This document shows, one piece after another, positions 7,301 to 26,417 of a DNA stretch of 64,000 bases; within the stretch, counting starts at the first letter, position 1, and every line of letters starts with the position of its first letter. Both the position numbers and the translations under genes were made by a program. The notes under the pieces are model-generated. The model ran no database searches and was not told where the DNA came from. It saw only the letters and a list, made by a program, of their open reading frames with translations. The stretch lies in NCBI RefSeq assembly GCF_027489515.1, contig NZ_JAIXZS010000083.1:123686-187685 (forward strand), read 5' to 3'. The DNA is from Novosphingobium sp. GTDB lineage: Bacteria > Pseudomonadota > Alphaproteobacteria > Sphingomonadales > Sphingomonadaceae.

Positions 7301-7676
7301 AAATGTCGCAGAAGGAGCAATCCTTTGCGGCGCAAGCAACGACATTTCAAGTCAGGCGAATGCTTGTCTGGCGGCGATATTCTGCACGGCACAGTCGATG
7401 CGGGAGCGTTGGTGTGTGTTTTCGGTAATAGTTTGCGAAAGCGGGCAGCAATCACGAGATGATGTATTTGCTGGATGACGGGCCCTTCAGGTCGAATTGC
7501 CTCTTGGTTCATCTGGCGTCTTGAAGAATACGATCGCCTTCATGGTGATTGTGAAGTGAGGGAATGACGACGGCGCCAGAACTGCAAACGGTTCGGCGCG
7601 CCCCGCGCAAAGTGGGCAAACAGGGATGGGGATGTCGCTTCGAGAAGGCTTTCACGCAGGCAACGCGGGGGCTCGA

Positions 7677-10115: not shown

Positions 10116-10254
10116 GCGAAGTACTTCGTTTGGGGGGATGACTGCACAATAGGGGGCGGGGTTGATCCTCGCCCCCGATTGCGCAATCCTGCTGCAGCAA
10201 AGGCTGGCAGCAGAACAGGATAACGAGCAACAACAGGCGAGGAGTTGCAGGGTC

Positions 10255-11145
10255 ATGAGCTTGGGCTTGAAGAAGCTGGCGGTCGATTGCCTTCCGCCCG
10301 CGACATTGGCGGCGGTGGTGGCATTCTGGTATTTCGCGCCTGCTGCAGTGGTCGCGAACCCGTGGACTTCGCTCATCGTCAACGCCGTTGTCACGGCATT
10401 CGTACTCGGCCTCGAACTCGTTTTCGAACGTCACGCCGGTTGGCGGATCAACCGCGAGGAGTTCTTCACCGATCTCTTCTACTTCGTGCTGATCAACACC
10501 GTGATCGGACGGATGGCCTATATCCTTTCCGAAGCACCGCTGCGTTCGCTCAAGGAATCCTGGGGCATCGCGACCCCATGGGTGACTGAGATGCCGTTCC
10601 TCGCCCAGGTCGCGCTTGTCGTGTTCCTGTGGGAATTCGGCCAGTATTGGATGCACCGGCTGATGCACAACTGGGAGCCCTTCTGGCTGACCCATGCACC
10701 GCACCACCACATCACGCAGCTCAATGCCATGAAGGGCGCTGTCGGAAACCCGATCGAGCTGTTCCTGATCAGCCTCGGCATCGTCGCCTTGCTCGACGTT
10801 TCCCCGGCGGCGTACCTCTGCGCGTTTGCCACGACCAACGTGATCGCAACTTATGCCCATGCCAACGTGAAGAGCGATCCGCCGCTGTTCTACAGCTTCT
10901 TCTTCACCACGATCCGCCACCACAGCTTCCACCATTCGGTGGGTTATGAAAACACCCGCTGCAACTATGGCAATTCGCTGATCCTGATCGACCGGATGTT
11001 CGGCACCTACAAGGAAGGTGAGGGCGTGCTTGTCGGACAGGACGACCGCCGGCGGCTGACGATCTGGGAGCAGTTCGTGTTCCCGTTCAAGCCGCTGATC
11101 GAGATGGTGGAGCGGCGCAAGGACAAGTCGTCCGCTGCCGGATAA
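10255..11145 (+). CDS. Sterol-desaturase / fatty-acid-hydroxylase family membrane di-iron enzyme
   Basis: Three His boxes HRLMH, HAPHH, HHSFHH plus transmembrane segments. ATG at 10255 has a GGAG RBS upstream. Confidence 0.85.
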   Translation: MSLGLKKLAVDCLPPATLAAVVAFWYFAPAAVVANPWTSLIVNAVVTAFVLGLELVFERHAGWRINREEFFTDLFYFVLINTVIGRMAYILSEAPLRSLKESWGIATPWVTEMPFLAQVALVVFLWEFGQYWMHRLMHNWEPFWLTHAPHHHITQLNAMKGAVGNPIELFLISLGIVALLDVSPAAYLCAFATTNVIATYAHANVKSDPPLFYSFFFTTIRHHSFHHSVGYENTRCNYGNSLILIDRMFGTYKEGEGVLVGQDDRRRLTIWEQFVFPFKPLIEMVERRKDKSSAAG

Positions 11146-11154
11146 ACCCGCGGC

Positions 11155-12726
11155 GTGAAGGCTGAACCAACCCGCATTGCCGCCGTCCGCCGCGCACTGG
11201 GGCGCAGCGATTTCGCGGCGGCGGAGCAGCTGGCGGCTAGCGTCGTGGCCGCCTTTCCCGAGGATGCCGAAGGCCGGTTCCTGCTTGGCATGGCGCGGGC
11301 AGAGGCTGGGCGCGTCGGGGCAGGGATCGCCGATATTGCCCGCGCGGTCGAACTTGACCCGCGAGGCAGCTACCGCGCGCAGTTGGCGCGGCTGCAGGTT
11401 ATGTTGCGGCAGGATGGGGAGGCTGCGCAGACGCTGGCGGCGGCCGAAAGCGCCTTGCCGGACGATGCGCTGGGCCGCGATACGATGGGCTGCGTCTATG
11501 CCCGGCTCGGCGAACACAAGGCGTCGGTGCCGCATTTTCGCGCGGCGGTGCAACTGGCTCCGGGCAACGTTTCGTTTCGCTACAATCTTGCCGCCGCGCT
11601 CAACTTCATCGGCGATACGGACGGCGCTGAGGTGGAGGCCGAAGCGCTGATCGCGCTCGATCCCGATTATGCGAGGGGCCATCACATGCTGGCCGGGCTT
11701 CGCAAGGTCAGTGCCGAGCGGAACCATGTCGAGCGGCTGACGGCGGCATTGGCGCGCGCGCAGGCAGCTGATGCACGGTTGCTTCTGGGCTATGCGCTGG
11801 CGAAGGAGCTCGAGGATATCGGCGAGCAGCAAGGGGCGTTCGCCCGGCTTGCTGAGACGAATGCCGAGCACCGGGCGCGGCTGCCTTATGTATTCACGCG
11901 CGACGGCGCCAATTTCGACGCGATCGAGCGGACCTGGCCGCGCCTAGTGCAGGCGCCGGTGCGGGGGGCTCCGCAGGATGCGCCGATCTTCGTGATCGGG
12001 ATGCCGCGCACCGGCACGACGCTGGTGGACCGCATCCTCTCCTCGCATCCCGAAGTGTGGAGCGCGGGCGAGCTGCAGGCGATGCCGCTGGCGGTGAAGA
12101 TGGCAGCAGGGACGCGCAGCCGCGTGGTGCTCGATCCCGAGACGCTGGAGGCAGCAGCGAGCGCCGATCTCGGCGCCATCGGGCGTGATTATCTGGCACG
12201 GGCGCGCACCCACGCCGGGGCGCGCGAGGGGCGTTTTGTCGACAAGTTTCCGGGGAACTTCCAGTACGCCGGGTTTATCGCGCGGGCGCTGCCCGAGGCG
12301 CGAATCGTGTGCCTCAGGCGCCATCCGCTCGATACGGTGCTGGCGAACTTCCGGAACCTCTTCGCGATCTCGTCGCGCTATTACGACTACAGCTACGACC
12401 TCATGGACATTGCGCGCTACTATGTGCGGTTCGATCGGCTGATGGCACTCTGGTGCGAGGCGCTGCCGGGCCGGATCCTCGAGCTTGGTTACGAGGATCT
12501 GGTGGCGGATCAGGAAGGCGGGACGCGCGCGCTGCTAGCGCATTGCGGGCTGGCATGGGATGCGGCCTGCCTCGATTTCCACCGCAACACCGCGCCGGTC
12601 TCAACCCCGAGCGCAGCGCAAGTGCGGCGGCCGATGTACAAGGATTCGGTGGCGCGCTGGACGAGGCACCGGGACACGCTGGCCCCGGTGATCGCATACT
12701 TCGAGATGGAAGGGATCGCTATCTAG
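11155..12726 (+). CDS. TPR-repeat-containing sulfotransferase family protein
   Basis: N-terminal TPR-like helices. 5'-PSB loop IGMPRTGTTLVDRIL, DKFPGNF, RHPLDT, and C-terminal TPSAAQVRRPMY. Confidence 0.85.
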   Translation: MKAEPTRIAAVRRALGRSDFAAAEQLAASVVAAFPEDAEGRFLLGMARAEAGRVGAGIADIARAVELDPRGSYRAQLARLQVMLRQDGEAAQTLAAAESALPDDALGRDTMGCVYARLGEHKASVPHFRAAVQLAPGNVSFRYNLAAALNFIGDTDGAEVEAEALIALDPDYARGHHMLAGLRKVSAERNHVERLTAALARAQAADARLLLGYALAKELEDIGEQQGAFARLAETNAEHRARLPYVFTRDGANFDAIERTWPRLVQAPVRGAPQDAPIFVIGMPRTGTTLVDRILSSHPEVWSAGELQAMPLAVKMAAGTRSRVVLDPETLEAAASADLGAIGRDYLARARTHAGAREGRFVDKFPGNFQYAGFIARALPEARIVCLRRHPLDTVLANFRNLFAISSRYYDYSYDLMDIARYYVRFDRLMALWCEALPGRILELGYEDLVADQEGGTRALLAHCGLAWDAACLDFHRNTAPVSTPSAAQVRRPMYKDSVARWTRHRDTLAPVIAYFEMEGIAI

Positions 12727-12732
12727 CCGGGC

Positions 12733-15132
12733 TTACCGGGCCGGACAGGGGATCGTCTCGCCGACGCCTTCAATGCTGGCGCCGCGCAGCGAGAGCACGA
12801 GACCCTTGTCCCCTGCAATGCGCAAGGGCGTGCCAACCGACTTGAAGTCCGCGCCGGCATCCTTGAAGCAGCGCAGCGGAATGCGCAGCGTGAGCGCGCC
12901 GGCGGACGGCGTTACCTTGAGTGTGGCGCCGGCCATTGTCACTGCGATGGGGCCGGCGGCGGCATCGAGACGGCCTTCCAGCTTCAGCGCGAACTCCTCG
13001 TCGAGCTGGCGCATGAGATCCACTGGCGGGCCATCGATGCCAATCGCGCCAGGCTCGGCCCATGAATATTGCCGCGCATCCTCCTGCGCACCGATATCGA
13101 CCGGCCGCTCGGCGATGCCGGGATCGAGGCTGAGGTGCCAGGGCGAGGGGACCTTGCCGAGCGCGATGTAGACGCCCTCGCTGGCCGAGGCGACGAGATC
13201 GACGTGCGGGTCTTCATTCACCGTGCCGACCATGGACTTGCTGGCGTAAGTCAGGCCGTAGCCAGTGGGGAACAGCGGGGTCTTGACCGGGGACACCGCG
13301 TCGGCGGGCCAGGGGAAGGGGAGCTTGCCGGTGAAGCCACGGGCCGGCTTGCCAGCCTTGCCAGCGACGAGGACGTCTGCAACGCCCTGGCCTTGCGTGC
13401 CGGGAAGCCAGGCCGCGACGAAAGCATCGGAGGCGTTGAGTTCTGTCCCGACGAACATCGGGCGGCCCGAGAGGAACACCGAGACGACCTTGATGCCCTG
13501 CGCCTTGAGCTTGGCCAGCAGGTCCTTCTCGCCCGCCTGTGCGCGGAAGGCGATGTTGGGCATGTCGCCCTGGAATTCGGCGTAAGGTTGCTCGCCATAG
13601 ACGACGACGGCGACATCAGGCCGATTGGCAAAGCTGCCATCGGCCGAGATTGCGGCGCTGCCGCCTGCGTCCTTGATGGCAGCGGCGATCGCGCGGCCAA
13701 TAGTCTGGCCCTTGGGGAAATCCGCCGCGGTCGTATCGGTGCCCTGCCAGGTGATCGTCCAGCCGCCGGCCTGCATGGCCATGCTGTCGGCACCCGGGCC
13801 GGTGATCAGGACTTTGGCGCCGGGCTTGAGCGGGAGAACGCTGCCGTTATTCTTGAGGAGGACGAGCGACTTGGCCGCCGCTTCGCGCGCTACGGCAAGG
13901 TGTGCATCGGCGCCGACCACGGACGGATTGCCGCGATCCACCGGGTTTGCGCCAAGCAGGCCGAGCTTGGCCTTGACGCGCAGGATGCGGCGGACGGCAT
14001 CGTCGATGCGCGCCATCGGGATCGTGCCGTCCTTCGCCTCGCGCACGGTGGCTTCGTAGAGGCCCTTCCAGCTGTTGGGCGCCATCGCGAGATCGAGCCC
14101 GGCGGTGAAGGTCTTGGCGCAATCGGTGACGGTGCAGCCGGGAATCTGGCCGTGGCCGTTCCAATCCCCGACGACGAGGCCCTGGAAGCCCATGCGGCCC
14201 TTGAGCACATCGGTGAGCAGCGACTGGTTGCCGTGATTCTTGGCTCCGTTCCAGCTCGAGAAGCTGGCCATCACTGTCAATGCACCCGCATTGATCGCGG
14301 GCGGATAGCCCTGCGCATGGCGGGCGACGAGTTCGCGTTCGGAAATCAGCGCATCACCCTGGTCCTTGCCGCCATCGGTGCCGCCATCGGCGAGGTAATG
14401 CTTCGCGGTGGCAGCGACGCGGTCGGCGGCGAGGGGCTTGCCGGGGATCAGCGGGCCTTGCAGGCCGATTGTCATGGCCTTGGCGTAGCTGGCGACGAGC
14501 GCGGGATCGGCGGCATATCCTTCGTAGCTGCGGCCCCAGCGCAGATCCTGCGGTACAGCAAGGGTGGGCGCAAAGGTCCAGTCGATGCCGCTGGCGGCGA
14601 CCTCGATGGCCGTCACTTCGCCGATGCGCCGGATCAGCGCAGGATCATGCGCCGCGCCGAGGCCGATGTTGTGCGGGAAGATCGTGGCGCTGGGGAGGTT
14701 GGAATGGCCGTGGACGGCATCGATGCCGAACAGCATGGGAATGCCCGCGCCCGCCTTGGCTGAAGCGGCGCGGAACGCACGGACCAGCTTTGCCCACTTG
14801 GCCGCGTCGGCGCGTTCATCGCCCCATGGGCCCGAATTGCCGCCCGCGAGGATCGAGCCGAGCGGGTACCTCGCAAGGTCTTCCGGCGTGATCGCGCTGA
14901 TGTCGGCCTGGATCATCTGGCCGACCTTCTGCTCGAGCGTCATCGCTGCGATCATGCGGGTAATGCGGCGCTCGGTCGCGGGCGTGGTGATCGCTGCCGG
15001 GCTGTGCGCAGCCGGCCAGAGCGCGGGGTGAGCGGTGCTGAAGGCATCAGCGGGGGCTGGCGGATTCGGGGCCGCAATGGCGCTTCCCGACGCCAGCAAC
15101 ATGGCTGCCATAAGTGCGCGCCGAACTGTCAT
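12733..15132 (-). CDS. GH3 beta-glucosidase / exo-1,3/1,4-beta-glucanase, secreted
   Basis: GIDAVHGH, WGRSYEG, ATAKHY, nucleophile region VVGDWNGH, YAEFQGD. Signal peptide from MTVRRAL (ATG 15132). Confidence 0.92.
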   Translation of the reverse strand: MTVRRALMAAMLLASGSAIAAPNPPAPADAFSTAHPALWPAAHSPAAITTPATERRITRMIAAMTLEQKVGQMIQADISAITPEDLARYPLGSILAGGNSGPWGDERADAAKWAKLVRAFRAASAKAGAGIPMLFGIDAVHGHSNLPSATIFPHNIGLGAAHDPALIRRIGEVTAIEVAASGIDWTFAPTLAVPQDLRWGRSYEGYAADPALVASYAKAMTIGLQGPLIPGKPLAADRVAATAKHYLADGGTDGGKDQGDALISERELVARHAQGYPPAINAGALTVMASFSSWNGAKNHGNQSLLTDVLKGRMGFQGLVVGDWNGHGQIPGCTVTDCAKTFTAGLDLAMAPNSWKGLYEATVREAKDGTIPMARIDDAVRRILRVKAKLGLLGANPVDRGNPSVVGADAHLAVAREAAAKSLVLLKNNGSVLPLKPGAKVLITGPGADSMAMQAGGWTITWQGTDTTAADFPKGQTIGRAIAAAIKDAGGSAAISADGSFANRPDVAVVVYGEQPYAEFQGDMPNIAFRAQAGEKDLLAKLKAQGIKVVSVFLSGRPMFVGTELNASDAFVAAWLPGTQGQGVADVLVAGKAGKPARGFTGKLPFPWPADAVSPVKTPLFPTGYGLTYASKSMVGTVNEDPHVDLVASASEGVYIALGKVPSPWHLSLDPGIAERPVDIGAQEDARQYSWAEPGAIGIDGPPVDLMRQLDEEFALKLEGRLDAAAGPIAVTMAGATLKVTPSAGALTLRIPLRCFKDAGADFKSVGTPLRIAGDKGLVLSLRGASIEGVGETIPCPAR

Positions 15133-15155
15133 TCTCACCCTTCCCGCTTTATTTC

Positions 15156-15169
15156 TGTGAACGTTCCCA
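15156..15169. promoter_or_regulatory. LacI-type operator TGTGAACGTTCCCA upstream of GH3
   Basis: 14-bp near-palindrome with central CG. It matches the two sites at 26386-26417. Confidence 0.7.
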
Positions 15170-15220
15170 ATAGCGTTCGTCGCATGAGAAAGCATCAAAA
15201 TCAAGCGGGGCTGTCAGATT

Positions 15221-16438
15221 TCATTGGTCTGTTTCGGAAGAGAGCCGGGACAGCAGCAAGGCTGCGACCAGTGCAAGCGCGGCAAACAGCAGAAAAAGGC
15301 CGGTAAAACCGAACCAGGGCACGAGCGCGAGAGTGAACCAAGGCATGACCAGCGAGGGTACGGTGTTGGTGAGATTGAACAGGCCAAGGTCGCGCCCGCG
15401 CCGGCCCGCGTCGGGCAGCGTGCGCAGCGTCTGCGCCGAATGCAGGGCAAGGAAGATCGAGGTGGAGAAACCGAACACGCCGTAGCTGAGCACCCCGGCC
15501 GGCACACTCTGCGCAAGCGCCATACCGACGAGGCCGACAGGCGCGACCAGCGTGCACAGCACAAGCGGCAGGAACGGATGGCCGCGCCGGTCCGCCCAGC
15601 GCCCTGCAAGGAGAGCCGCAGGGGCCGAGACGACAAGCACCGTGCTGAAGACGCGCGCGGTGAGGTGGTCGTCGACCGCAGGATTGATGGAGCGAAGCCA
15701 GAGGTAGAGGAACGAGAACAGGGCCGCCTCGGCGACCTGCACGAGGAGACGGGCCGCCCACATGAGCAGCGCCGCTCGCTTGCGCCGACGCGGCGGCGCG
15801 GATGCGGGCGGTGCTACCACCGCTGCCGTGCGGCTGCCGAGCAGCAGCGCCGGCAAGACAGCGGCGGCGACGCCGAGCGCGACGATCACGAGGCGGCCAT
15901 CGGGGGTGGCAAGGCCCGGTATGGTGACGAGCGCCCCTGCCAGAGCGCCAAGCCCGGGGGCAAAGGCAAGCAGTCCGCCGAGCAGACCCTTCTGGCTGTC
16001 GGGCACGCAGTCTGCCCCCCACGCAGCCAGCGGAGCGAGCATCATGTTGAGCCCGAGCTGCCACAGCACCACGACGGCGATGATATCGCGCAGGGTATGC
16101 ACCGAAGGCACCGCAAGCAGCAGTATGCAGGAGAGCGCAAGGCCGAGCGCTGCCCAAGGGCGGCGCGTGGCCGTGATGTCGCTCAGCCAGCCGAACAGGA
16201 TATGACCCAGGCTTGCCGAAATCGCCCCGCAGAACGCGATGGCTGAAAGCCAGACGATCGCCTGCTCCCCCGGCGCGAGCGCGGCAACCCGCACTGGGAG
16301 GAGGATGGTAAGAAAGGGTACATAGGCAATCGACCCGCCCGCCCACGCCAGCGCATAAAGCACCAGGAACAAGAGTGGCTGGCGGGAAGGGGGCTGGCCC
16401 AAGGGAAGTTCGCCGGGGCCGCCGGGCCTGTCAGACAC
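15221..16438 (-). CDS. MFS transporter (probable sugar importer)
   Basis: About 12 hydrophobic segments, with GWLSDITATRRPW and GRWADRRG MFS loop motifs. Confidence 0.88.
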   Translation of the reverse strand: MSDRPGGPGELPLGQPPSRQPLLFLVLYALAWAGGSIAYVPFLTILLPVRVAALAPGEQAIVWLSAIAFCGAISASLGHILFGWLSDITATRRPWAALGLALSCILLLAVPSVHTLRDIIAVVVLWQLGLNMMLAPLAAWGADCVPDSQKGLLGGLLAFAPGLGALAGALVTIPGLATPDGRLVIVALGVAAAVLPALLLGSRTAAVVAPPASAPPRRRKRAALLMWAARLLVQVAEAALFSFLYLWLRSINPAVDDHLTARVFSTVLVVSAPAALLAGRWADRRGHPFLPLVLCTLVAPVGLVGMALAQSVPAGVLSYGVFGFSTSIFLALHSAQTLRTLPDAGRRGRDLGLFNLTNTVPSLVMPWFTLALVPWFGFTGLFLLFAALALVAALLLSRLSSETDQ

Positions 16439-17495
16439 TCACGGTTTGCCTGGCAGGGGCGACCGAGCCGCGCTCGACGAGGCTCGCCGGGATCACCGTG
16501 AGCGCATCGTTGAGAACTTCGCCCTTCTGCGCCGCGATAATGAGCTCGACGGCCTTGGAGGCCGTCGCCGCGATGGGCTGGTCGATCGCGGTGAGCTGGG
16601 GCTGGGTGAACTGCATCATCGGCGTGTTGTCGAAGCTGATGAGCGAGAGATCGCGCGGCACGGCAAGCCCGGCCTGGCGGGCGACTTCGAGCGTCGCGAG
16701 CGCCATCTGGTCGTTGCTGGCGATGATCGCGGTCGGCGGCTCGGAGTGCGCAAGCAGCGCGCGGGCGGCGCGCTCGCCCGACGTGTAGGTAAAGTCGCCC
16801 GCGTGGAGCAGGCCCGCGGTGGCGAGGCCAGCCTCAGCCATCGCGGCCCGCCAGCCTTCGACGCGCCAACCGCTGAGATTGTATTCCGCCGCGCCCGCGA
16901 TGAAGCCGATTCGGCGGTGTCCATGCTCGACCAGATAGCGTGTCGCGGCGGCGGCTGCGCCTTCATCGTCCATCAGGATCGGCATGCCGGCATCGCCCGC
17001 CTTGGAACCGATCCGCGCAAAGGGGATCTGCTGCTGCGCAAGACAGCGCACGATTTGCGGATTGTCCGAGTGCGGCGGGGTGAGAATGATGCCATCGGGC
17101 TGCAGTGCGGCGATGGCGGCCAGGAGTTCGCGCTCGACGTGATCGGAATGCGTGTCGACCAGCTCGACGATCATCCGGTAGCCGTGTTCGGCGCACTTGA
17201 GCATACCGCCCAGCAGCATCTGGTCGACCCAGTCGGTGCCCTGCCGCGCGCGCCAGTCGGCGATCGTGCGGTCGCGGTCGTTGAGGGCAAGGATCAGGTA
17301 CGAGCGCGAACCGCTCATCCGCTGGGCTGCGATGGAAGGCACATAGCCGAGGCGCTTGATCGACTCGAGCACGCGCTCCTTGAGTTCGGGACGGACGTTG
17401 GGCTCGTTGTTGATGACGCGGCTGACCGTCTGGAGCGATACCCCGACGTCTGCCGCAACGTGCCTGATCGTGACCGCCTGACGACGCCTCGCCAT
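16431..17495 (-). CDS. LacI-family transcriptional regulator
   Basis: HTH VTIRHVAADVGVSLQTVSRVIN, hinge YVPSIAAQRM, C-terminal DLSLISFDN...LTAIDQP. Confidence 0.95.
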   Translation of the reverse strand: MARRRQAVTIRHVAADVGVSLQTVSRVINNEPNVRPELKERVLESIKRLGYVPSIAAQRMSGSRSYLILALNDRDRTIADWRARQGTDWVDQMLLGGMLKCAEHGYRMIVELVDTHSDHVERELLAAIAALQPDGIILTPPHSDNPQIVRCLAQQQIPFARIGSKAGDAGMPILMDDEGAAAAATRYLVEHGHRRIGFIAGAAEYNLSGWRVEGWRAAMAEAGLATAGLLHAGDFTYTSGERAARALLAHSEPPTAIIASNDQMALATLEVARQAGLAVPRDLSLISFDNTPMMQFTQPQLTAIDQPIAATASKAVELIIAAQKGEVLNDALTVIPASLVERGSVAPARQTVSV

Positions 17496-17498
17496 GCG

Positions 17499-18437
17499 TT
17501 ACTTGTTCCCTTCTTGTGGCGCAGGCGCTGCGCTGGCGGTTGCCACAGGCTTTTGCCAGACGCGCACCCAATCGATCAAGAAGCGCTTGGGAAAATTGGT
17601 GTTGGCGATACCCTTGAGGCCGCGCGATTCCGCCAGACCCCCGCCGAACGCGAGATTGAGGATAAGGTGAAAGGGCTGATCAAATGGCGCGCCGGGCGTG
17701 GCTGAGCCTGATGTCCACCATTCGCTACGCTGGCGCACGGCATAGGTCTGGCCGTCGATCTGCCAGACGATCTGATCGCCCCGCCATTCGATGGCGTAAG
17801 TGTGGAAGCCCTTCAGCACTGCGGGTTTGTGGACTTCCGTGCCCTTGTGGCTGTTGCCGGGCCACGGCTTGCCGAAATGGAGCGTGCCGAGGATCGTGTC
17901 CTCCTTGCCGCCGGCGCAGGAGGCGCAAGGAACGCCGAGGTTGACGGCCTCGAGAATGTCGATCTCGCCAGAGGCGGCCCAGGTGCCGTAAGTGTCCTTT
18001 TCCGGCAGCATCCAGATCGCAGGCCAGGTACCCTGACCTTGCGGCAGATTGGCGCGCACTTCGATGCGGCCATAGCGCCAGGCGGCCTTGCCACGCGTGG
18101 TGAGGCGTGCGGAGCTGTAGTCCCGGGTGACAAGCGCACCGGGCTCGGCCGGGTTGGCGCGCTGGCTGGCGGGAAGTGCGGGGCCGGTGACGCGCTCGTT
18201 GCGCGCGGTGATGACGAGCTTGCCTTGCACAATCCGCGCGTTGCGCGGCTTGTCGGTGTAGCATTGACGTTCGTTGTTGCCGCCGCCCCAGCAATCGACA
18301 TCGAAGCCCCACTTGGCGGGATCGATCGCCGGGCCGGTGAACTCGTCGGACCAGACGAGTTGCCAACCGGGCCCAGTGGGCGCAGCCAGCGCGGGAAGCG
18401 GTACGGCCAGTACGGCGAGGGCGAGCAAGTGCCGCAT
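17499..18437 (-). CDS. GH16 laminarinase-type endo-beta-1,3-glucanase
   Basis: WSDEF, YGRIEVRA, WPAIWML, catalytic EIDILE, FHTYAIEW, FDQPFHLILNLAFGG. Signal peptide present. Confidence 0.92.
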   Translation of the reverse strand: MRHLLALAVLAVPLPALAAPTGPGWQLVWSDEFTGPAIDPAKWGFDVDCWGGGNNERQCYTDKPRNARIVQGKLVITARNERVTGPALPASQRANPAEPGALVTRDYSSARLTTRGKAAWRYGRIEVRANLPQGQGTWPAIWMLPEKDTYGTWAASGEIDILEAVNLGVPCASCAGGKEDTILGTLHFGKPWPGNSHKGTEVHKPAVLKGFHTYAIEWRGDQIVWQIDGQTYAVRQRSEWWTSGSATPGAPFDQPFHLILNLAFGGGLAESRGLKGIANTNFPKRFLIDWVRVWQKPVATASAAPAPQEGNK

Positions 18438-19939
18438 CAGGCTGCGCGCGCTGCCTGCACGCCGCAGTACTGGGCGACATAGGCTTGGTGATCGGGCAGG
18501 CCCGCGACGGTCTTGGCGACGCTTTCGCGCAGGCCGTGCAGCAGGTGTTCGAGTTCGGCGTCCGAAAGCTTGGTCGCGACCGGGTGGTAGCTCTGCGGCA
18601 TGATGCCCTGACCCATCATGACCTGCACCCAGCTGTTCTCGACGAACAGCTCCTCGTTCTTGCGGAAGACGCGGCCCGTTTCGCGGAACAGCTCGATCTT
18701 GTGCGTGAGGCTATCGGGGATCTCCATTGCGGCGCACTGGCGCCAGAACGGGCTGTCGCGGCGGTCGGTGGCCTTGTAGTGGAGGATCAGGAAGTCGCGG
18801 ATCTGCTCCATGTCGGTCAGCTGCTGATCGTTGAACTCGGCGATGTCATGTTCACTAACTTTACCCATGGGAAGCATGCGGACAATTCTAAGAATTGCTC
18901 TTTGAATCAAATGGATACTTGTTGATTCCAGTGGCTCCATGAAGCCGCCCGAAAGACCCACCGCGATGCAGTTGCGGTGCCACTGCTTGCGGCGCGCGCC
19001 GGTGGTGAAGCGGATGAAATTGGGCTGGGTCAGCCGCTCGCCCTCGACGGTCGAGAACAGGCGTTCGAGCGCGGCGTCCTTCTCGAGATAGCGGCTGCAA
19101 TAGACGATGCCGTTGCCCTGCCGGTGCTGGAGCGGAATGCGCCACTGCCAGCCCGCATCATGGGCGATCGCACGGGTATAGGGCACGGGCGGGCGGACGC
19201 TGGCGGTCTGCACCGCGATGGCGGAATCGCAGGGGAGCCAATGCGTCCAGTCGTCGTACCCCACGTGGAGCGCGCCTTCCATCAGGAGTGCGCGAAAGCC
19301 GGTGCAATCGAGGAACAGATCGCCTTCCAGGCGCTGACCGGAATCGAGGCGCAGCGCGGCGATGTCGCCCGTTTCGGGGTGAAGCTCGACTTCAGCGATC
19401 TTGCCCTCGACCCGGCGGCAGCCATCCGCTTCGGCCAGCTTGCGCAGGAACACCGCGTAGAGGCCGGAATCGAGCTGGTAGGCGTAGTTGATGCGGTTAT
19501 CCGGCAGGTGCGCGAACCGGGACTTCATCGCAGCCTGAAGCTCGATGCAGTAGTCGTCGTAGCTCGCCTTGTGGCCGCGCGTGAGGCCGTGCATCCAGAA
19601 GTGCTGGAAGCCTGCGCTCCAGTGATCGCGCCCGGTCGTGCCAAAGGAATGGAAGTAGCTTTCGCCCGGCACCCGCCAGTTCTCGAAATTGATGCCGAGC
19701 TTGAAGGTGGCCTGCGTCGCACGCATGAAATCGGCCTCGCCGATGCCAAGCAGGCGGTTGTAGGCAACCAGCGGGGGGATGGTGCTTTCGCCCACCCCGA
19801 TCGTGCCGATGGCCTCGGATTCGACCAGCGTGAGTTCGATGGCATCACCAAGCGTGCGGGCGAGCGCGGCAGCGGCCATCCAGCCGGCAGTGCCGCCCCC
19901 GGCGACGATGATACGGCGCTTTGCGTAGCTTTCAGTCAT
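18437..19939 (-). CDS. Tryptophan-halogenase-family flavin-dependent enzyme
   Basis: GGGTAG, GVGESTIP, conserved Lys in ATFKLGI, WQWRIP, FMEPLESTS. Confidence 0.9.
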   Translation of the reverse strand: MTESYAKRRIIVAGGGTAGWMAAAALARTLGDAIELTLVESEAIGTIGVGESTIPPLVAYNRLLGIGEADFMRATQATFKLGINFENWRVPGESYFHSFGTTGRDHWSAGFQHFWMHGLTRGHKASYDDYCIELQAAMKSRFAHLPDNRINYAYQLDSGLYAVFLRKLAEADGCRRVEGKIAEVELHPETGDIAALRLDSGQRLEGDLFLDCTGFRALLMEGALHVGYDDWTHWLPCDSAIAVQTASVRPPVPYTRAIAHDAGWQWRIPLQHRQGNGIVYCSRYLEKDAALERLFSTVEGERLTQPNFIRFTTGARRKQWHRNCIAVGLSGGFMEPLESTSIHLIQRAILRIVRMLPMGKVSEHDIAEFNDQQLTDMEQIRDFLILHYKATDRRDSPFWRQCAAMEIPDSLTHKIELFRETGRVFRKNEELFVENSWVQVMMGQGIMPQSYHPVATKLSDAELEHLLHGLRESVAKTVAGLPDHQAYVAQYCGVQAARAA

Positions 19940-20967
19940 TGGCTGAGGGTCCTTAGCAGGAAGGAGCGGAGGCGGCCGGCGGCGGCCGGATCGAGCGGAT
20001 CCAGAATGCCGCGCCCGCCTTCGGGAATGTGGTCGGTGACATCAGGTCCGTTCTCGAACACGTAGTAATCGAAGAGCGCGCGCCAGATCGCCTTGTCCTC
20101 GCTTGGCAGATCGCGGATCGATAGGATTGCGTGGTTGAGCGCATCCTGCGGCTGGCCAAGCCAGCGCGGGGTATCGCGCCACCAGTAATTCATCAGAATG
20201 TTGAACGGGGCGAGCCCTTCGACATGGTGCCACCACATCGAGGGGATGAAGAGCGCGTCGCCGGGTTCCAGCACCGCAACCTGCGCGTGGGCGAGCGCCT
20301 CGGCAAAGCGAGGGTGCCGATCGAGATCGGGCGCATGGAAATCGACCATCGAGACCGCGCGGCCCGCCGGCGTGTTGTCGATAGGGCCGAGGTGTAGACC
20401 CGCGAACTGATCGGGCGGGAACAGCGTGAAGCGGCGGCGGCCGGCGGCGCAGCAGGCGAGATTGTCCGGAAAATCGTTGTGCGCCGCGATCCGGGTCGGC
20501 GTGCCGATCCACAAGCTGATGACGGGCTCGCGCCTGCCGAGATCGAGGGCGTTTTCGGCGGCGACGGTGGTGAAGTGCGTCGGCACGTCGATCGAGCCCA
20601 TGTAGATCGCGGGGGCATCGGCGCGGCCTTCGTTGGCGTCCATGCCGCCGAACACATCGGCCAGCTTGCCCCGCGCCTCGCGGAAATTCATCGCCATGTC
20701 GTCGCCGTAGAACAGGCGGCCGTCCTTGCCCGGCTCACCCAGCGAGACGGTGAAGGGAACGGGGCGGGCGCGTTCGAGAAGATAGGCGCGCGCGGTTCTG
20801 GCTGACACGAGCCCTGCCTGCACCAGCGGCCAATGGCGGACGAGGCCGCGGATCACGAAGGGCGTGCGCGCGCCCTGCAGCAGTGCATCGAGCGCGGCGG
20901 CATCGGGTGCCGCGCGCTCTTCCACCGCGGGCATCGCGGCGAATATCGAGGCATCCGCCTCAGCCAA
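19936..20967 (-). CDS. Cupin-like / JmjC-type putative Fe(II)-2OG oxygenase
   Basis: HxD...H triad (AAHNDFPDN...WWHHVE) and LEPGDALFIPSMWWH. Confidence 0.8.
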   Translation of the reverse strand: MAEADASIFAAMPAVEERAAPDAAALDALLQGARTPFVIRGLVRHWPLVQAGLVSARTARAYLLERARPVPFTVSLGEPGKDGRLFYGDDMAMNFREARGKLADVFGGMDANEGRADAPAIYMGSIDVPTHFTTVAAENALDLGRREPVISLWIGTPTRIAAHNDFPDNLACCAAGRRRFTLFPPDQFAGLHLGPIDNTPAGRAVSMVDFHAPDLDRHPRFAEALAHAQVAVLEPGDALFIPSMWWHHVEGLAPFNILMNYWWRDTPRWLGQPQDALNHAILSIRDLPSEDKAIWRALFDYYVFENGPDVTDHIPEGGRGILDPLDPAAAGRLRSFLLRTLSQ

Positions 20968-21694
20968 GGAGGACCTTGCGGTTCTTGCGCGCGATCAGGT
21001 TGCCAAACTGCGCGAGGCTGGCGAGCACCATGTAGATGCGCGCGAGATGGCCCTCGCGCATCAGCGCGGCAAGCGCTTCGCCGTCGAGGCTGGCGAGGCG
21101 TTCCTCGTGGATGGTGAGAAAGCCGACAAGCGACTGGACTGCGCCGTTGTCGAGCGTGACTTCGAGCGTGAAGGGCTCGACAAGGCCATAGGTTTCGAGC
21201 GCGGTGAAGAAGGCGGCGCCTTCCTGCCAGGCATAGTCGAGATCGCCGAGCATCGTGGCGACGGCTTCGAGATAGGGCGTAGGCGCCCCGGCATCATCGA
21301 ACACGCGCATGCCTTCACCGCGTGCGGCGATGCGGGGGCTGGCCATGTCGATGTGGACTTGCGGCGTTGCGCCCTCTTGCGCCGGGCGGCCGATGAGGAA
21401 GGGCTGCACGGCATGGGCCATGGGGCGATAGCGCGCTTCCCAGACCGTGCCCCCACCGAGGCCGGTCGCAAGGAAGAGGTTCTCGCCCGCCTCGAACCCG
21501 AACAGCGCGAGCGCGGCAAGCTTGCCGGTTTCGGCATCGCGGCGCAAAACGATGGGGTAATGCGCCTGCACCTCGCGGAATTCGGCCGGCATGGCGAGCG
21601 AGGCCATCACGTTGTCGCCGAATTCCGCGCCAGCTTCGGTCTGGATGCGAAGCTGGCCGTGATCGGTGGAATTGAGGATCTGGTGCTGGCTCAT
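20960..21694 (-). CDS. SapC family protein
   Basis: [49 protein letters not shown]. Typical companion of halogenase/TBDR loci. Confidence 0.8.
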
Positions 21695-23220
21695 GCGGGT
21701 ATCCTGGCGGCTGCCGTGCGGGCAGCAAGATGATCGAGGTAGTCGCGCGTGGCCGGCAATGCGGCGGCAAGCGCGCGTGCCTTTGCCGCAATTTCGGCGA
21801 GGCGGGCAGGCGCGGCGGGCTGGCAGCCTGCAAGCGGAACGGGCATGCCCATGCCGTGCAGCACATATTGCTGGCTGGCGGCGGGGAACATCTCGTCGAC
21901 ACGAGGGAAATCCCAGGCCGACGGCGCCTGCTCACGCCACAAGGCGAGGCATTCGGCCAGGCGCGGCGGGATGGTTTCAGGCGCGCGCTGGGCCTGCCAA
22001 TAGGGCTCGGTCCGCCGGCTTGGCACATAGTGGAGCTTGAGGAATTCAACGACGCGGTCCCAGCGGTAGCGGAACAGCTCGTTGAAGCGCGCGGCGTGGA
22101 TATCCATGCTTGTGCGGTTTTGCGGGAAATTGTCGGCCAGCGCTTTCAGCGAGAGCTCGATCAGCACGATCGCCGAGGCTTCGAGCGGTTCGATGAACCC
22201 GGCGGAAAGACCCACGGCGAGGCAATTGCCGATCCAGAAGCGGTCACGGTGGCCGGTCCGGAAAGCTAGCTTGCGCGGGGTTAGGGTGGCGGGATCGGCG
22301 CCGGGCACTTTGGCCGCGACATAGGCCCTGAGGATCTCCGCCGCGCGGTCATCCGAGATGAAGCGCGAGGCATAGACGCAGCCGATGCCGCGGCGGGTGG
22401 GAAGGCCGATATCCCAAAGCCAGCCCGCCTCGTGCGCGGTGCCGATGGTCTGCGCGGCGATGGGGCTGCCGGGTTCGACCGGGACCTGCACCGCAAGCGC
22501 GCGGTCGTTGAAGGAAACGTCGGAGCGGTCGATCCAGGCGGCGCCGCATTCACCGGCAATGAGGATCGCGGCCTGGCCAGAGCAATCCACGAACAGGTCG
22601 CCTTCGAGCGAAGTTCCATCCTGCAGCAAGAGCGCAGCAATATCGCCGTTTGCTGCGCGGCTGACGCCCGTCACCTTTGCAGCAATCCGTGCCACGCCAA
22701 GCCGCTGGGTGGCGTGGCGCATGAGCAGCGCGGCAAACTTGCCGGCATCGAGATGGTAGCCGTAGTTCAGCGCGCCCGCATAATCGGGCATGGCGCGCTG
22801 GCGCGGTGCGAGGTGGGCTGCACAAACGGCATGCTGCGGGGTGATCGCCGCAGCAAACGGCCCCCCTTGGCCGCCCAACTGCCATGTGGCGGCAAGATCG
22901 CGCATCTCTGCCGCAGGCGGGGCGGTGAAGGGGTGAAGGTAGCTGTCTTCGGCCGAACCGTCACGCCATCCATCAAAGCGCGAGCCTTGCTTGAAGGACG
23001 CATCGCACTGGGTGAGAAATTCGGCTTCGGGAATGCCGATGGTCGCCAGCGTCTCGCGCATCGTCGGCCAGGTGCCTTCGCCGACGCCGATGGTCGGGAT
23101 ATCGGGCGCCTCGACCAGTGTAATTCGCTGTGCCGGAAGCCGCGCGCCGAGCAGGCTGGCCGAAAGCCATCCGGCGGTGCCGCCGCCGACGATGACGATA
23201 TGCTGGACCGGATTGCTCAT
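21691..23220 (-). CDS. Tryptophan-halogenase-family flavin-dependent enzyme (second paralog)
   Basis: ATG 23220 [26 protein letters not shown], Lys in ASFKQG, WLWDIG (variant of WxWxIP), FIEPLEASA. Confidence 0.88.
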
Positions 23221-23329
23221 CGAAGGGCGACCATAGCGCAGATTTGCCCGTGTGACCAAAGAGAAGAGCCGCACCGCTGCGTGCAGTGCGGCCCTCTCGA
23301 TTGCAGACCTTCGTTCAGGGATGAACCTG

Positions 23330-26323
23330 TCAGAAGGAGAAGCGTGCGCCTGCTGCCCAACGCGCATAACCGGGCGCCGCGAAGAACACGGTCTGGTCGT
23401 TGCGCATGTGGCCCTTGCGATCGGCGTTGGTGATGTTGATCCCTTCGCCGAAGACAGTGACGCCCTTCTTGATCTCGTAGCTCGCGCTCACGTCCCACTG
23501 GCCGTAGGGGTTCACGTAGTACGGATCGAAGCCGTAGCCCGACAGGAACCCGGCGCGCCAGTTGTAGGCGACGCGGGCCTGGAGGCCCTTCTTGTCGTAG
23601 TAGAGCACCGCGTTCGCACTGTTGCTGATGCCGGTGACCGCGAACTGCGGGACGGTATAGCGCTTCGTGTTGTCGAACTTGGTATCGCTGCGCACCACGG
23701 TGTAGTTCACGATGGCACCGAAACCGGTTTCCCAGAAGCTGTGCTGGACCGCGAATTCCCAGCCCCAGATGCGGGCCTTCTGGTCGCTGTTGGTCGGCTG
23801 CGTGGTGATGAAGTTGACCAGCGGATCATCCGCCAGCGACTTCACGCCCGTCACGTTGCCCGCGCCGTCACGGCCGGCGACCGTCTGCGGATACTTGTTG
23901 CCGATGTAGTTGAGGATCTGCTGCGCGGTGGCATCAGCCCCGAGTGCGGCACGCGCCTCCTTGGCCCGGTCGCCAGCGGCCGCGTTGGTCAGGCCGAAGG
24001 CGGGCTGATTGACCTGCGTCTGGCTGATGTAGTTCTTCACGACCTTGTGGAAGAAGCCCACCGAGATATAGCTCGTCGGCCCGTAGTACCATTCACCCGA
24101 GATATCGACGCCCTTCGACTTGTAGGGCAGCAGGTTCGGGTTGCCGCTCGAGGCCGTGCTGCCGCCGATGCGGATCGGCGAGGCGAGCGTGGTGCCGCCC
24201 TGCATGCTGGCATAGTCCGGACGGGTGATCGTGTGGCTGTACGACGCGCGGAACTTGAAGTTCTTGAACGGCTGCATGTCGAAGTCGATCGCAGGCAGCC
24301 AGTTCTCGTACTGGCCCTTGAGCGTCACGAATGAACGCTCTGCACCGTAGATGATCGCGGTTTCGTTACCACCGGTCCACACCGTGCCCGAGGGGATCGG
24401 CACGAGCGCGCTCGAATCGACCTTGGTCTTTTCGTAACGCAGGCCGAGGCGCAGATGCGACGGCGCATCGCCCAGATCGAACGAGTGCGTCGACTGGATG
24501 TAAGGCGCAACCGTGCGTTCGCGGATCGAGCGGTCGGTATCGAACTTGGCAAGGCAGGTACCGGCGGTCTGCGCGTTGGCGCAGATGCCGATCTTGTCGT
24601 TGAGCAAGTTGATCAGGCCGGGCGTGTTGACATTGAAGTAGCTCGGAATGATCCCGCTGCCCGTCACGTTCATGCCGCTGAGATCATTGGGCAGATCGCG
24701 GATGGTGTAGAGATCGTCGGGCGTATCGGCCTTGGACAGCGTGCCGCCCCAGGTGTCGTTCTGGATGACGCCGAAGGCCGAGCGGACCTTGTTTTCGGTG
24801 TAGGTCACGCCGAAATCGAGGCTGTCGATGAACGAGGCGTCGAAATCGTAGCCGCCGCGCAAGGACGCCTCGTTGATCTCGTCACGCATGTAGGCGGTGC
24901 GGAAGGCGTTGCCGGCGGGGCGGATGTTGGCCGCGTTGATCTCGGCGCCCGGGTACATCTCGACCGAGATGACCGGCATGTCTGAGGTGAAATCGACCTT
25001 CTGGCTCTTCACGCCGAAGATCGCGCTGCCGACGGCAATGCCCGACCCGTACGGTGCGGTCGGCTTGCTTTCGGCGGTCGAGTGATGGCCGTCGAGCTCG
25101 AGGCGGAGGCCGCCCGGACCATCCCACTTGAGGTTGCCGCCGATCGAGTGGTTGCGCGAGCGGTTGGCCGCGACCGCGCCGGTGATGGCGAGGTCCTTGC
25201 CTTCGTTGGGCCCGAAGCTTTCAGCGTAGAAGTTGGGGCCGGCGGCGGGGCCATCGGTCCAGCTGCTGCTCGTCTGGTTGTGGTTGAACCACACGCCGAT
25301 GCTGTTGGTGCGCGCATCGATGGTGTTCTGCGAGAAGGTGTAATCGACCGTGGCGACGAGCGTGTCGGTCGGCTTGACCTGGATCACGGCCTGACCGTTG
25401 ATGCGCTCGCGGCGGAAGGTGGTGAAATCGTAGCCGGCGTTCTGCGTCACCTGATAGACGGTGTTCGGGCCGGGCCGGTTTTCGGTCTTGGCGAAGTTGC
25501 CGCGCCAGTCATTGGCGTCGACCGGGAGCGAACCCCAGTTGTTTTCATAGCCGAGGTAGCCTTCGCGCCAGCCGGCGTTGAACTGCGCCTGGCTCGCGCG
25601 GCGATCCTGATAGGAGCCGCTGATCGAGATACCGATGCGGTTGTCGGCGAAGGTATCGCTGATGACGCCCGAGAATTCCGGCTTCACCTTGCCGCCTTCG
25701 AACACCGAAGTATCGTAGAGTGCCTTCGCGCCGATGCTGCCGTGAAGGCCGGGGCGGTCGAGCGGACGCGGCGTCTTGATGTTGATCACCGAACCGATAC
25801 CGCCGGTGGCGAGGTTGGCGCGGCCCGACTTGTAGACTTCGACACCCGCGATGCCTTCCGAGGCGAGGTTGGCGAAATCGAAGCTGCGCGAGGCCGGCGC
25901 GCCGCTCGAGCCGCCGAGGCTGGAGGCGGGCATCTGGCGGCCGTTGAGCAGCACAAGGTTGTAATCGGGGCCGAAGCCGCGGACGGTGACGAACTGGCCT
26001 TCACCGTTGCTGCGGTCGATCGAGACGCCGGTGATGCGCTGCAGCGATTCCGCAAGGTTGGTATCGGGGAACTTGCCGATGTCTTCCGCCGAGATCGCAT
26101 CGATCACGCCGATGCCGGTGCGCTTGATATTGAGCGAGCTCTTGAGCGAGGCCCGGATGCCGGTGACGACGATGGCGGCCGGCGCGTCGTCGCTCGCAGC
26201 CTGCGGTGCGGCCGCGGGCTGAGCCGCTTCCTGCGCCATTGCCTGCTGAGCGGTGAGAGCGAGTGCGGCTGCAGAAGCGCCCAGCATGAGGTGGGCATAG
26301 GCAGGCTTGCGCGATGCTTTCAT
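23330..26323 (-). CDS. TonB-dependent receptor (carbohydrate-utilisation type)
   Basis: ATG 26323 with [37 protein letters not shown]-terminal GARFSF. Confidence 0.95.
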
Positions 26324-26385: not shown

Positions 26386-26417
26386 TGTGAACGTTCACCT
26401 AGCTGGGAACGTTCACT
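26386..26417. promoter_or_regulatory. Tandem LacI-type operators TGTGAACGTTCACC and TGGGAACGTTCACT
   Basis: Two near-palindromes with starts 18 bp apart, upstream of the TBDR. Same consensus as 15156-15169. Confidence 0.72.

Follow-up and report, generated by a model that had tools for sequence, protein, structure and literature searches.

What do two halogenases, an oxygenase and a SapC protein do inside an operon that appears to serve the uptake of a beta-glucan? This question is raised by a locus at positions 12733-26323 of a 64,000-nt stretch of Novosphingobium DNA, which is called the window here and whose coordinates are used throughout. The locus contains nine genes, all on the minus strand, for a TonB-dependent receptor (TBDR), the halogenase HalB, SapC, the JmjC-type oxygenase Cupin_8, the halogenase HalA, a glycoside hydrolase of family 16 (GH16), a LacI-family repressor, a transporter of the major facilitator superfamily (MFS) and a family 3 glycoside hydrolase (GH3). 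A preliminary description of the same DNA had named these nine families on one strand, and all of them were found. It had also stated that the gene combination recurs in proteobacteria and that the role of the redox enzymes is unresolved, which agrees with two published studies (Iyer et al. 2010, PMC2938197; Widmann et al. 2020, PMC7336383). We found nothing in the literature on the function of HalB, SapC, Cupin_8 and HalA, hereafter the cassette, beyond Iyer 2010 and halogenase enzymology. The present analysis revealed that the cassette follows a receptor subfamily, not a sugar.

Linkage of the cassette to one receptor subfamily

The genome contains 11 PF04820 halogenase genes in seven loci, and every locus abuts a TonB receptor gene; at the seventh, the receptor gene is a fragment cut by the contig end. 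Exactly six full-length receptors score above the cut-off of the TIGR01782 family, including the receptor of the window (23330-26323, minus strand; Plug and barrel domains), which reached 583 bits against a cut-off of 310. A halogenase gene adjoins all six of them, compared with none of the ~49 other receptors. The neighbouring genes assign the seven loci to GH16/GH3 (the window), GH2/GH3/ROK, GH51/GH3/GH95/esterase, GH10/GH5, GH13, GH68 and an SSF-symporter locus. The sugar classes represented are beta-glucan, beta-glucoside/GH2, arabinoxylan-type, xylan, starch and sucrose/fructan, so that the halogenase loci of this genome, judged from their gene content, serve at least six sugars. The preliminary description had proposed halogenation or oxidation linked to glucan. 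The glucan locus and the co-transcription hold, whereas the specific link to glucan does not, because the same cassette across at least six sugar classes makes a glucan-specific halogenation too narrow a view.

The linkage was also evaluated in 61 Sphingomonadales genomes, with a distance limit of 12 kb between halogenase and receptor genes and 12 receptor candidates scored per genome. At least 104 of 126 halogenase genes were located within 12 kb of a TIGR01782 receptor gene, which is a lower bound since only 12 candidates were scored per genome. A halogenase accompanied 65 of the 127 TIGR01782 receptors, most commonly as the halogenase alone with the receptor (37/65). When halogenase adjacency was mapped on a tree of 123 receptors, 12 changes were required, compared with 41.6 for shuffled labels, and none of 500 shuffles gave a number as low. 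Halogenase adjacency is a stable clade-level trait that has been gained or lost at least seven times.

A receptor-alignment scan (alignment of 10 sequences, one genome per species) was used to take the 80 closest receptor relatives. These came from Alpha-, Beta- and Gammaproteobacteria, namely Sphingomonadales, Caulobacteraceae, Xanthomonas, Massilia/Duganella, Alteromonas, Colwellia, Pseudoalteromonas, SAR92, Cellvibrio relatives and others. Among the 80 loci, genes like those of the cassette were present in 68 (SapC), 67 (Cupin_8), 65 (HalA) and 50 (HalB), and genes like the sugar genes of the window in 38 (LacI), 34 (GH3), 24 (GH16) and 15 (MFS). The order downstream of the receptor gene was HalB>SapC>Cupin8>HalA in 37 loci and SapC>Cupin8>HalA in 15. 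The complete nine-gene order of the window was found in six loci (L149, L150, L152, L154, L156 and L159). SapC, Cupin_8 and HalA, in their fixed order, are thus retained much more often than GH16, GH3 or LacI. Other recurrent neighbours were GH1 (17 loci), MFS_2 (13 loci) and DUF6445 (12 loci); no exporter was conserved across the 80 loci, and no reductase or synthetase family recurred in them. Since the cassette tracks one receptor subfamily over at least six sugars and outlasts the hydrolases, the search for its function narrows to something that these receptors share.

These data bear on two alternatives. The first is that the cassette is an evolutionary passenger, functionally unrelated to uptake, which hitch-hikes in the operon. 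This would suit the half of the related receptors that stand without a cassette, but it is extremely unlikely in view of the intact catalytic motifs, the gene order fixed over three bacterial classes and the stable association with receptor clades. The second is that the receptor also takes up aryl or indolyl glycosides, or oligosaccharides decorated with phenolics, and that the cassette detoxifies or converts the aglycone. Beta-glucosidases of GH1 and GH3 are frequent neighbours (17/80 and 34/80), and the arabinoxylan-type locus of this genome has an esterase, as this alternative would expect. However, loci for starch (GH13) and for sucrose/fructan (GH68), sugars that should release no aromatic aglycone, contain the same cassette types, and halogenation is not generally known as a route of detoxification. 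We therefore regard the conversion of a co-imported aromatic compound as improbable.

The halogenases HalA and HalB

HalA (18437-19939, minus strand; PF04820, 2e-186) has all four motifs of the flavin-dependent halogenases, namely GxGxxG as GGGTAG, WxWxIP as WQWRIP, the lysine equivalent to PrnA K79 as K80 in FKLG and the glutamate equivalent to PrnA E346 as E337 in PLEST. HalB (21691-23223, minus strand; PF04820, 2e-118) has GGGTAG and keeps the lysine (K126 in FKQG) and the glutamate (E395 in PLEAS), with Gly in place of Pro in WLWDIG; both proteins are placed in this group by motif alone. GxGxxG and the catalytic-position lysine in both proteins, with WxWxIP in one and WxWxIG in the other, had been recorded in the preliminary description.

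The closest solved structures to HalB are 9ltb (1e-219) and 2pyx (1e-132), both unpublished. HalA matched Xcc4156 (PDB 6y1w, 4.5e-199) and BrvH (PDB 6frl, 5.6e-135). In Xanthomonas arboricola, a locus with the order TBDR>SapC>Cupin8>HalA encodes a HalA nearly identical to 6y1w (1025 bits), which indicates that the characterised Xcc4156 is the HalA of this cassette. Xcc4156 and BrvH brominate indoles and reject free Trp, and a peptide was suggested as the native substrate (Widmann et al. 2020, PMC7336383). The enzyme was studied in isolation in that paper, the text of which mentions neither TonB nor a gene cluster. Published work on the orthologue Xcc4156 and on BrvH thus already covers the assay of indole and Trp with an added flavin reductase that had been recommended for the window enzymes, with a positive outcome for indole bromination and a negative one for free Trp. 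The HalA of the window belongs to the same clade, shares 59% identity with the orthologue of Xcc4156 from X. arboricola and is a candidate for the same activity. A strict tryptophan halogenase of the PrnA/RebH/PyrH type was considered and rejected, since neither the flanks nor the related loci contain biosynthetic genes and the closest characterised relatives refuse Trp.

The xylan locus of this genome (contig C33:38998-45044; L003:6099-12145), which has GH10/GH5 and xylonate-type genes, contains four tandem HalA-type genes divergent from its TIGR01782 receptor gene. One of the four is degenerate, with 221 bits versus ~650 for its neighbours.

Cupin_8 and SapC

Cupin_8 (19936-20967, minus strand; PF13621, 8e-66) is a JmjC oxygenase of the FIH type with a metal triad formed by H163-N-D165 and H248. 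Its closest solved relatives are FIH (5e-19), JMJD5 and JMJD7, followed by TYW5 (3al5). FIH, JMJD5 and JMJD7 are protein side-chain hydroxylases, and TYW5 acts on tRNA. Cupin_8 shares with the three hydroxylases the fold signature and the metal triad, but the match is limited to the core (residues ~145-274), and the protein is a member of the superfamily and not an orthologue.

SapC (20960-21694, minus strand; PF07277, 4e-61) had no sequence match in PDB. An AlphaFold2 (AF2) model of moderate confidence (39 sequences, pLDDT 70.7) is rich in beta structure in its N-terminal half and helical towards the C-terminus, and a Foldseek search of PDB with this model gave no fold match (best E 0.67). 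Among the four divergent SapC paralogues of this genome, the only invariant polar residues are H12, E38, D116 and S226. A metal site was considered for SapC on the basis of the HxD motif of its close homologues (H114-I-D116), and was rejected because the motif is not kept among the four paralogues. One SapC gene of this genome (contig C93:16772-17659; L126:10773-11660) is an orphan, away from any receptor or halogenase gene and 27 nt downstream of a gene for an FAD-linked oxidase (GlcD-like); this context gave no functional clue.

Parts of the cassette were also found singly with the receptor. SapC and Cupin_8 are present without a halogenase in Massilia (L171, L172) and Rheinheimera (L217), with none within 9 kb, and Cupin_8 alone stands behind an orthologous receptor gene in Duganella (L178, L182), again with no halogenase within 9 kb. 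Such a distribution is harder to explain by a linear pathway than by separate modifications that act on one common target.

The enzymes could also carry out small-molecule chemistry, in which a glycan induces the halogenation and hydroxylation of a common cytoplasmic indolic or aromatic metabolite, yielding a compound that serves for signalling, against fouling or in defence of the feeding site. A part in niche signalling or defence, as put forward in the preliminary description, found no direct support. The bromination of free indole and its derivatives in vitro by Xcc4156 and BrvH, which are close to HalA, is in favour of this explanation; a substrate drawn from primary metabolism would need no scaffold genes, and the cassette is co-transcribed with the sugar genes. 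It leaves unexplained, however, why the cassette is linked to the receptor more tightly than the hydrolases, the regulator and the inner-membrane transporter are, and why only TIGR01782 receptors are partnered. In addition, the known targets of FIH-type JmjC enzymes are proteins and tRNA and not small molecules, the sub-modules occur separately, and the loci contain no conserved exporter. Small-molecule chemistry is thus a possibility to be taken seriously, though a doubtful one.

Operon structure and putative control by LacI

On its gene content, the locus is best explained as a LacI-controlled uptake operon of the beta-1,3-glucan type, in which the receptor, MFS, GH16, GH3 and LacI match the gene content of carbohydrate-utilization (CUT) loci. 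GH16 (17499-18437, minus strand) is a laminarinase-like endo-beta-1,3-glucanase with a signal peptide, the best match of which is the laminarinase 3iln (2e-51). GH3 (12733-15132, minus strand) is an ExoP-like exo-beta-1,3/1,4-glucanase with an Exop_C domain and a signal peptide, and its best match is the exo-1,3/1,4-beta-glucanase ExoP 3usz (1e-187). These matches bear out the beta-glucan utilisation locus of the earlier account. The LacI-family repressor (16431-17495, minus strand) and the MFS inner-membrane transporter (15221-16438, minus strand) were assigned by family or domain matches.

Adjacent genes in the stretch between HalB and MFS, as had been described, overlap or nearly touch (overlaps of 1-8 nt or gaps of 3 nt), which indicates a single translationally coupled unit. 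The redox genes are part of the same transcription unit as the glucan genes. No small open reading frame (ORF) lies between the overlapping genes, and the locus has no scaffold gene and no dedicated reductase. Likewise, the flanks in the window contain no gene for a flavin reductase, a non-ribosomal peptide synthetase, a polyketide synthase or peptide synthesis; the lack of a reductase or scaffold gene nearby, already remarked upon, thus extends from the flanks to the 80 related loci. The long ORF of HalB has 558 aa, and its true start is most likely Met49, which leaves a gap of 106 nt behind the receptor gene. Inside this gap is a GC-rich hairpin of 14 pairs (23264-23296, minus strand), which probably acts as a partial terminator or attenuator. 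Signal peptides are absent from all four proteins of the cassette, judging by their sequences.

A LacI-type operator-like perfect palindrome, GTGAACGTTCAC, lies at 26387-26398 upstream of the receptor gene, and a second one with one mismatch, GGGAACGTTCAC, lies at 26405-26416, 18 bp from GTGAACGTTCAC. The pair overlaps a TTGAC -35-like hexamer of the likely receptor promoter. A third operator-like site, GTGAACGTTCCC (15157-15168), is located 25 nt upstream of the GH3 start, which is most likely at 15132 and thus preceded by its own site. A genome-wide search allowing up to one mismatch gave nine matches. This number is close to the chance expectation, but four of the nine are in the promoters of the window locus and of a paralogous GH3/TBDR locus, which exceeds chance; control of both loci by a LacI-family regulator is therefore a reasonable inference. 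The fourth copy belongs to the paralogous locus (GH3/receptor/HalA), which is 50 kb upstream on this contig, and lies in its divergent promoter; the palindrome common to both loci suggests a shared regulon. The paralogous locus (contig C9:69776-80523; L001) contains genes for GH2, GH3, a receptor, HalA, a ROK kinase, a ROK regulator and LacI. Given the operon structure, the cassette would be co-induced with the glucan genes. In a metatranscriptome, a Colwellia halogenase and the neighbouring receptor were upregulated together.

A possible protein substrate tied to the receptor

The explanation that we favour, tentatively, is a sugar-induced tailoring in the cytoplasm of a protein substrate tied to the receptor. 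That the substrate is a protein is suggested by the closest relatives of the cupin, which hydroxylate proteins, and by Xcc4156 and BrvH, which refuse free Trp and for which a peptide was proposed by the authors. According to this explanation, beta-glucan oligosaccharides would relieve LacI repression at the palindromes ahead of the receptor and GH3 genes. The receptor would be made in excess, and the four cassette proteins, which lack signal peptides and are encoded behind the hairpin, at a lower level. In the cytoplasm, HalA and HalB would draw on O2, halide and FADH2 supplied by a general reductase, and the FIH-like oxygenase would use Fe(II) and 2-oxoglutarate. The halogenases and the oxygenase would then tailor a protein or peptide that belongs to receptor function, most likely the receptor precursor before Sec export or some partner protein, with SapC as an adaptor or a further enzyme. 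GH16, MFS and GH3 would afterwards carry out ordinary glucan breakdown.

In its most specific form, this explanation says that the cassette halogenates and hydroxylates the receptor itself before export, at Trp and polar residues of the long connections of the receptor; we consider this form unlikely. The receptor probably starts at Met26 of the long ORF and has a signal peptide ending in AMA/QE. The AF2 model (997 aa, pLDDT 86.5, pTM 0.83) contains 27 strand elements by DSSP, a number that is unreconciled with a 22-strand topology, and the long connections in the model are presumed to be extracellular loops. If the receptor were indeed modified, the modification could tune glycan capture or alter the surface recognised by phages and bacteriocins. 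It would also be the first case in which an enzyme halogenates a housekeeping protein made by the ribosome, and the number of halogenase paralogues per receptor, from one to four, could mirror differences in the sites to be modified.

A target residue in the receptor would be expected to be common to the halogenase-linked receptors, and this was examined by contrasting 61 linked with 62 unlinked TIGR01782 receptors. The Trp content was 1.25% in the linked and 0.91% in the unlinked receptors, and the number of Trp rose with that of the halogenases, with 8.1, 11.1, 11.1, 16.5 and 14.5 for zero to four halogenases. At least one Trp at positions 288, 370 or 947 of the long ORF, which were picked post hoc, was present in 58 of the 61 linked and in 7 of the 62 unlinked receptors. 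The contents of Gly and Gln differed between the two groups as strongly as that of Trp.

Several results weigh against a protein substrate tied to the receptor. No direct evidence for a protein substrate of the cassette was obtained, and HalA orthologues halogenate free indoles in vitro (PMC7336383). In the linked/unlinked contrast, no alignment column had a residue shared by all 61 linked receptors and missing from the 62 unlinked ones. The Trp signal was not significant in phylogenetically independent pairs (~3.8 versus 0 of 7, p ~0.125), and eight orthologous receptors from loci without a halogenase keep the invariant Trp and are no poorer in Trp overall (14.9 versus 13.5). Moreover, about half of the sampled TIGR01782 receptors are without the cassette, and several of these stand in glycan loci among genes for amylase, GH92, GH2, ROK and PfkB, which indicates that the cassette is accessory and not required for sugar uptake. 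Finally, 31 of the 61 Sphingomonadales genomes carry SapC as a single-copy orphan gene, and 15 of these 31 lack a halogenase, indicating that SapC has a role independent of the cassette.

Trp enrichment was thus dropped as evidence for the substrate because of the post hoc choice of positions, the failed independent contrasts and the persistence in halogenase-free orthologues; the pattern is regarded as a feature of the clade. Taken as a whole, the receptor-residue test gave no robust support for the receptor as the substrate and did not refute it. A modest chance also has to be allowed that none of the explanations named in this study is correct.

The function of the cassette is of interest beyond this locus. 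It is among the commonest unexplained gene sets of sugar-scavenging Proteobacteria, including Sphingomonads, Xanthomonas, Massilia, Alteromonas, Colwellia, SAR92 and Cellvibrio relatives, and its halogenases are under development as biocatalysts with no known natural substrate. This Novosphingobium has six receptor-halogenase pairs of graded complexity, which are convenient for mass spectrometry and deletions, and the loci of Massilia, Rheinheimera and Duganella provide natural 'deletion' variants useful for comparison.

Flanking genes and comparison with known systems

The locus is flanked on one side by a cassette of receptor, FA-hydroxylase and TPR-sulfotransferase genes and on the other side by a hydrolase/NAD-binding operon. 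The receptor, FA_hydroxylase and TPR-sulfotransferase genes occupy 7626-12726 on the plus strand and are convergent with GH3. Oxygenase, halogenase and sulfotransferase genes have been reported together in TonB-receptor neighbourhoods (Iyer et al. 2010, PMC2938197), and by analogy with these neighbourhoods the sulfotransferase cassette and the halogenase cassette may be part of one wider theme.

The same study described, in alpha- and gammaproteobacteria, a neighbourhood of a JmjC gene, one to three Trp halogenases, a TonB-class receptor and SapC, sometimes with a second classical 2-oxoglutarate oxygenase (PMC2938197). All of its main components were found on one strand of the window: Cupin_8 with the HxD...H triad, two PF04820 proteins with GGGTAG and the lysine, SapC and the receptor. 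The window copy resembles the described neighbourhood in these four components, in the intact halogenase and JmjC motifs and in the alphaproteobacterial host. It differs in that a sugar-type TIGR01782 receptor stands inside a LacI-controlled GH16/GH3 operon, and in that the optional second oxygenase is missing. A DUF6445 protein of ~240 aa, which 12 of the 80 related loci encode inside the cassette or directly behind it (e.g. L193:17899-18729) and which is absent from the window, may correspond to this second oxygenase.

Iyer et al. (PMC2938197) predicted that the product of such a neighbourhood is a halogenated, siderophore-like compound. In this explanation, the cassette makes a halogenated and hydroxylated compound from amino acids, which is then imported by the adjoining receptor. 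It has the merit of being the published prediction for the neighbourhood, but the sugar-type receptor in a LacI/GH16/GH3 operon argues against it. The receptors belong to TIGR01782, and the siderophore-receptor matches of the window receptor are weak and partial. The loci are under LacI or ROK sugar regulators and rich in glycoside hydrolases, and they contain no peptide-synthesis genes. A siderophore-like product is hence most improbable.

The CUT loci of Xanthomonas and Caulobacter provide the second point of comparison (Blanvillain et al. 2007, PMC1790865). Halogenase, SapC and cupin genes go unmentioned in the main text of that study. The likeness lies in the receptor, the inner-membrane transporter, the glycoside hydrolases and the regulator, all of which are present in the window locus. 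The cassette in the window adds no new kind of system; it is an intact copy of a widespread and known gene block.

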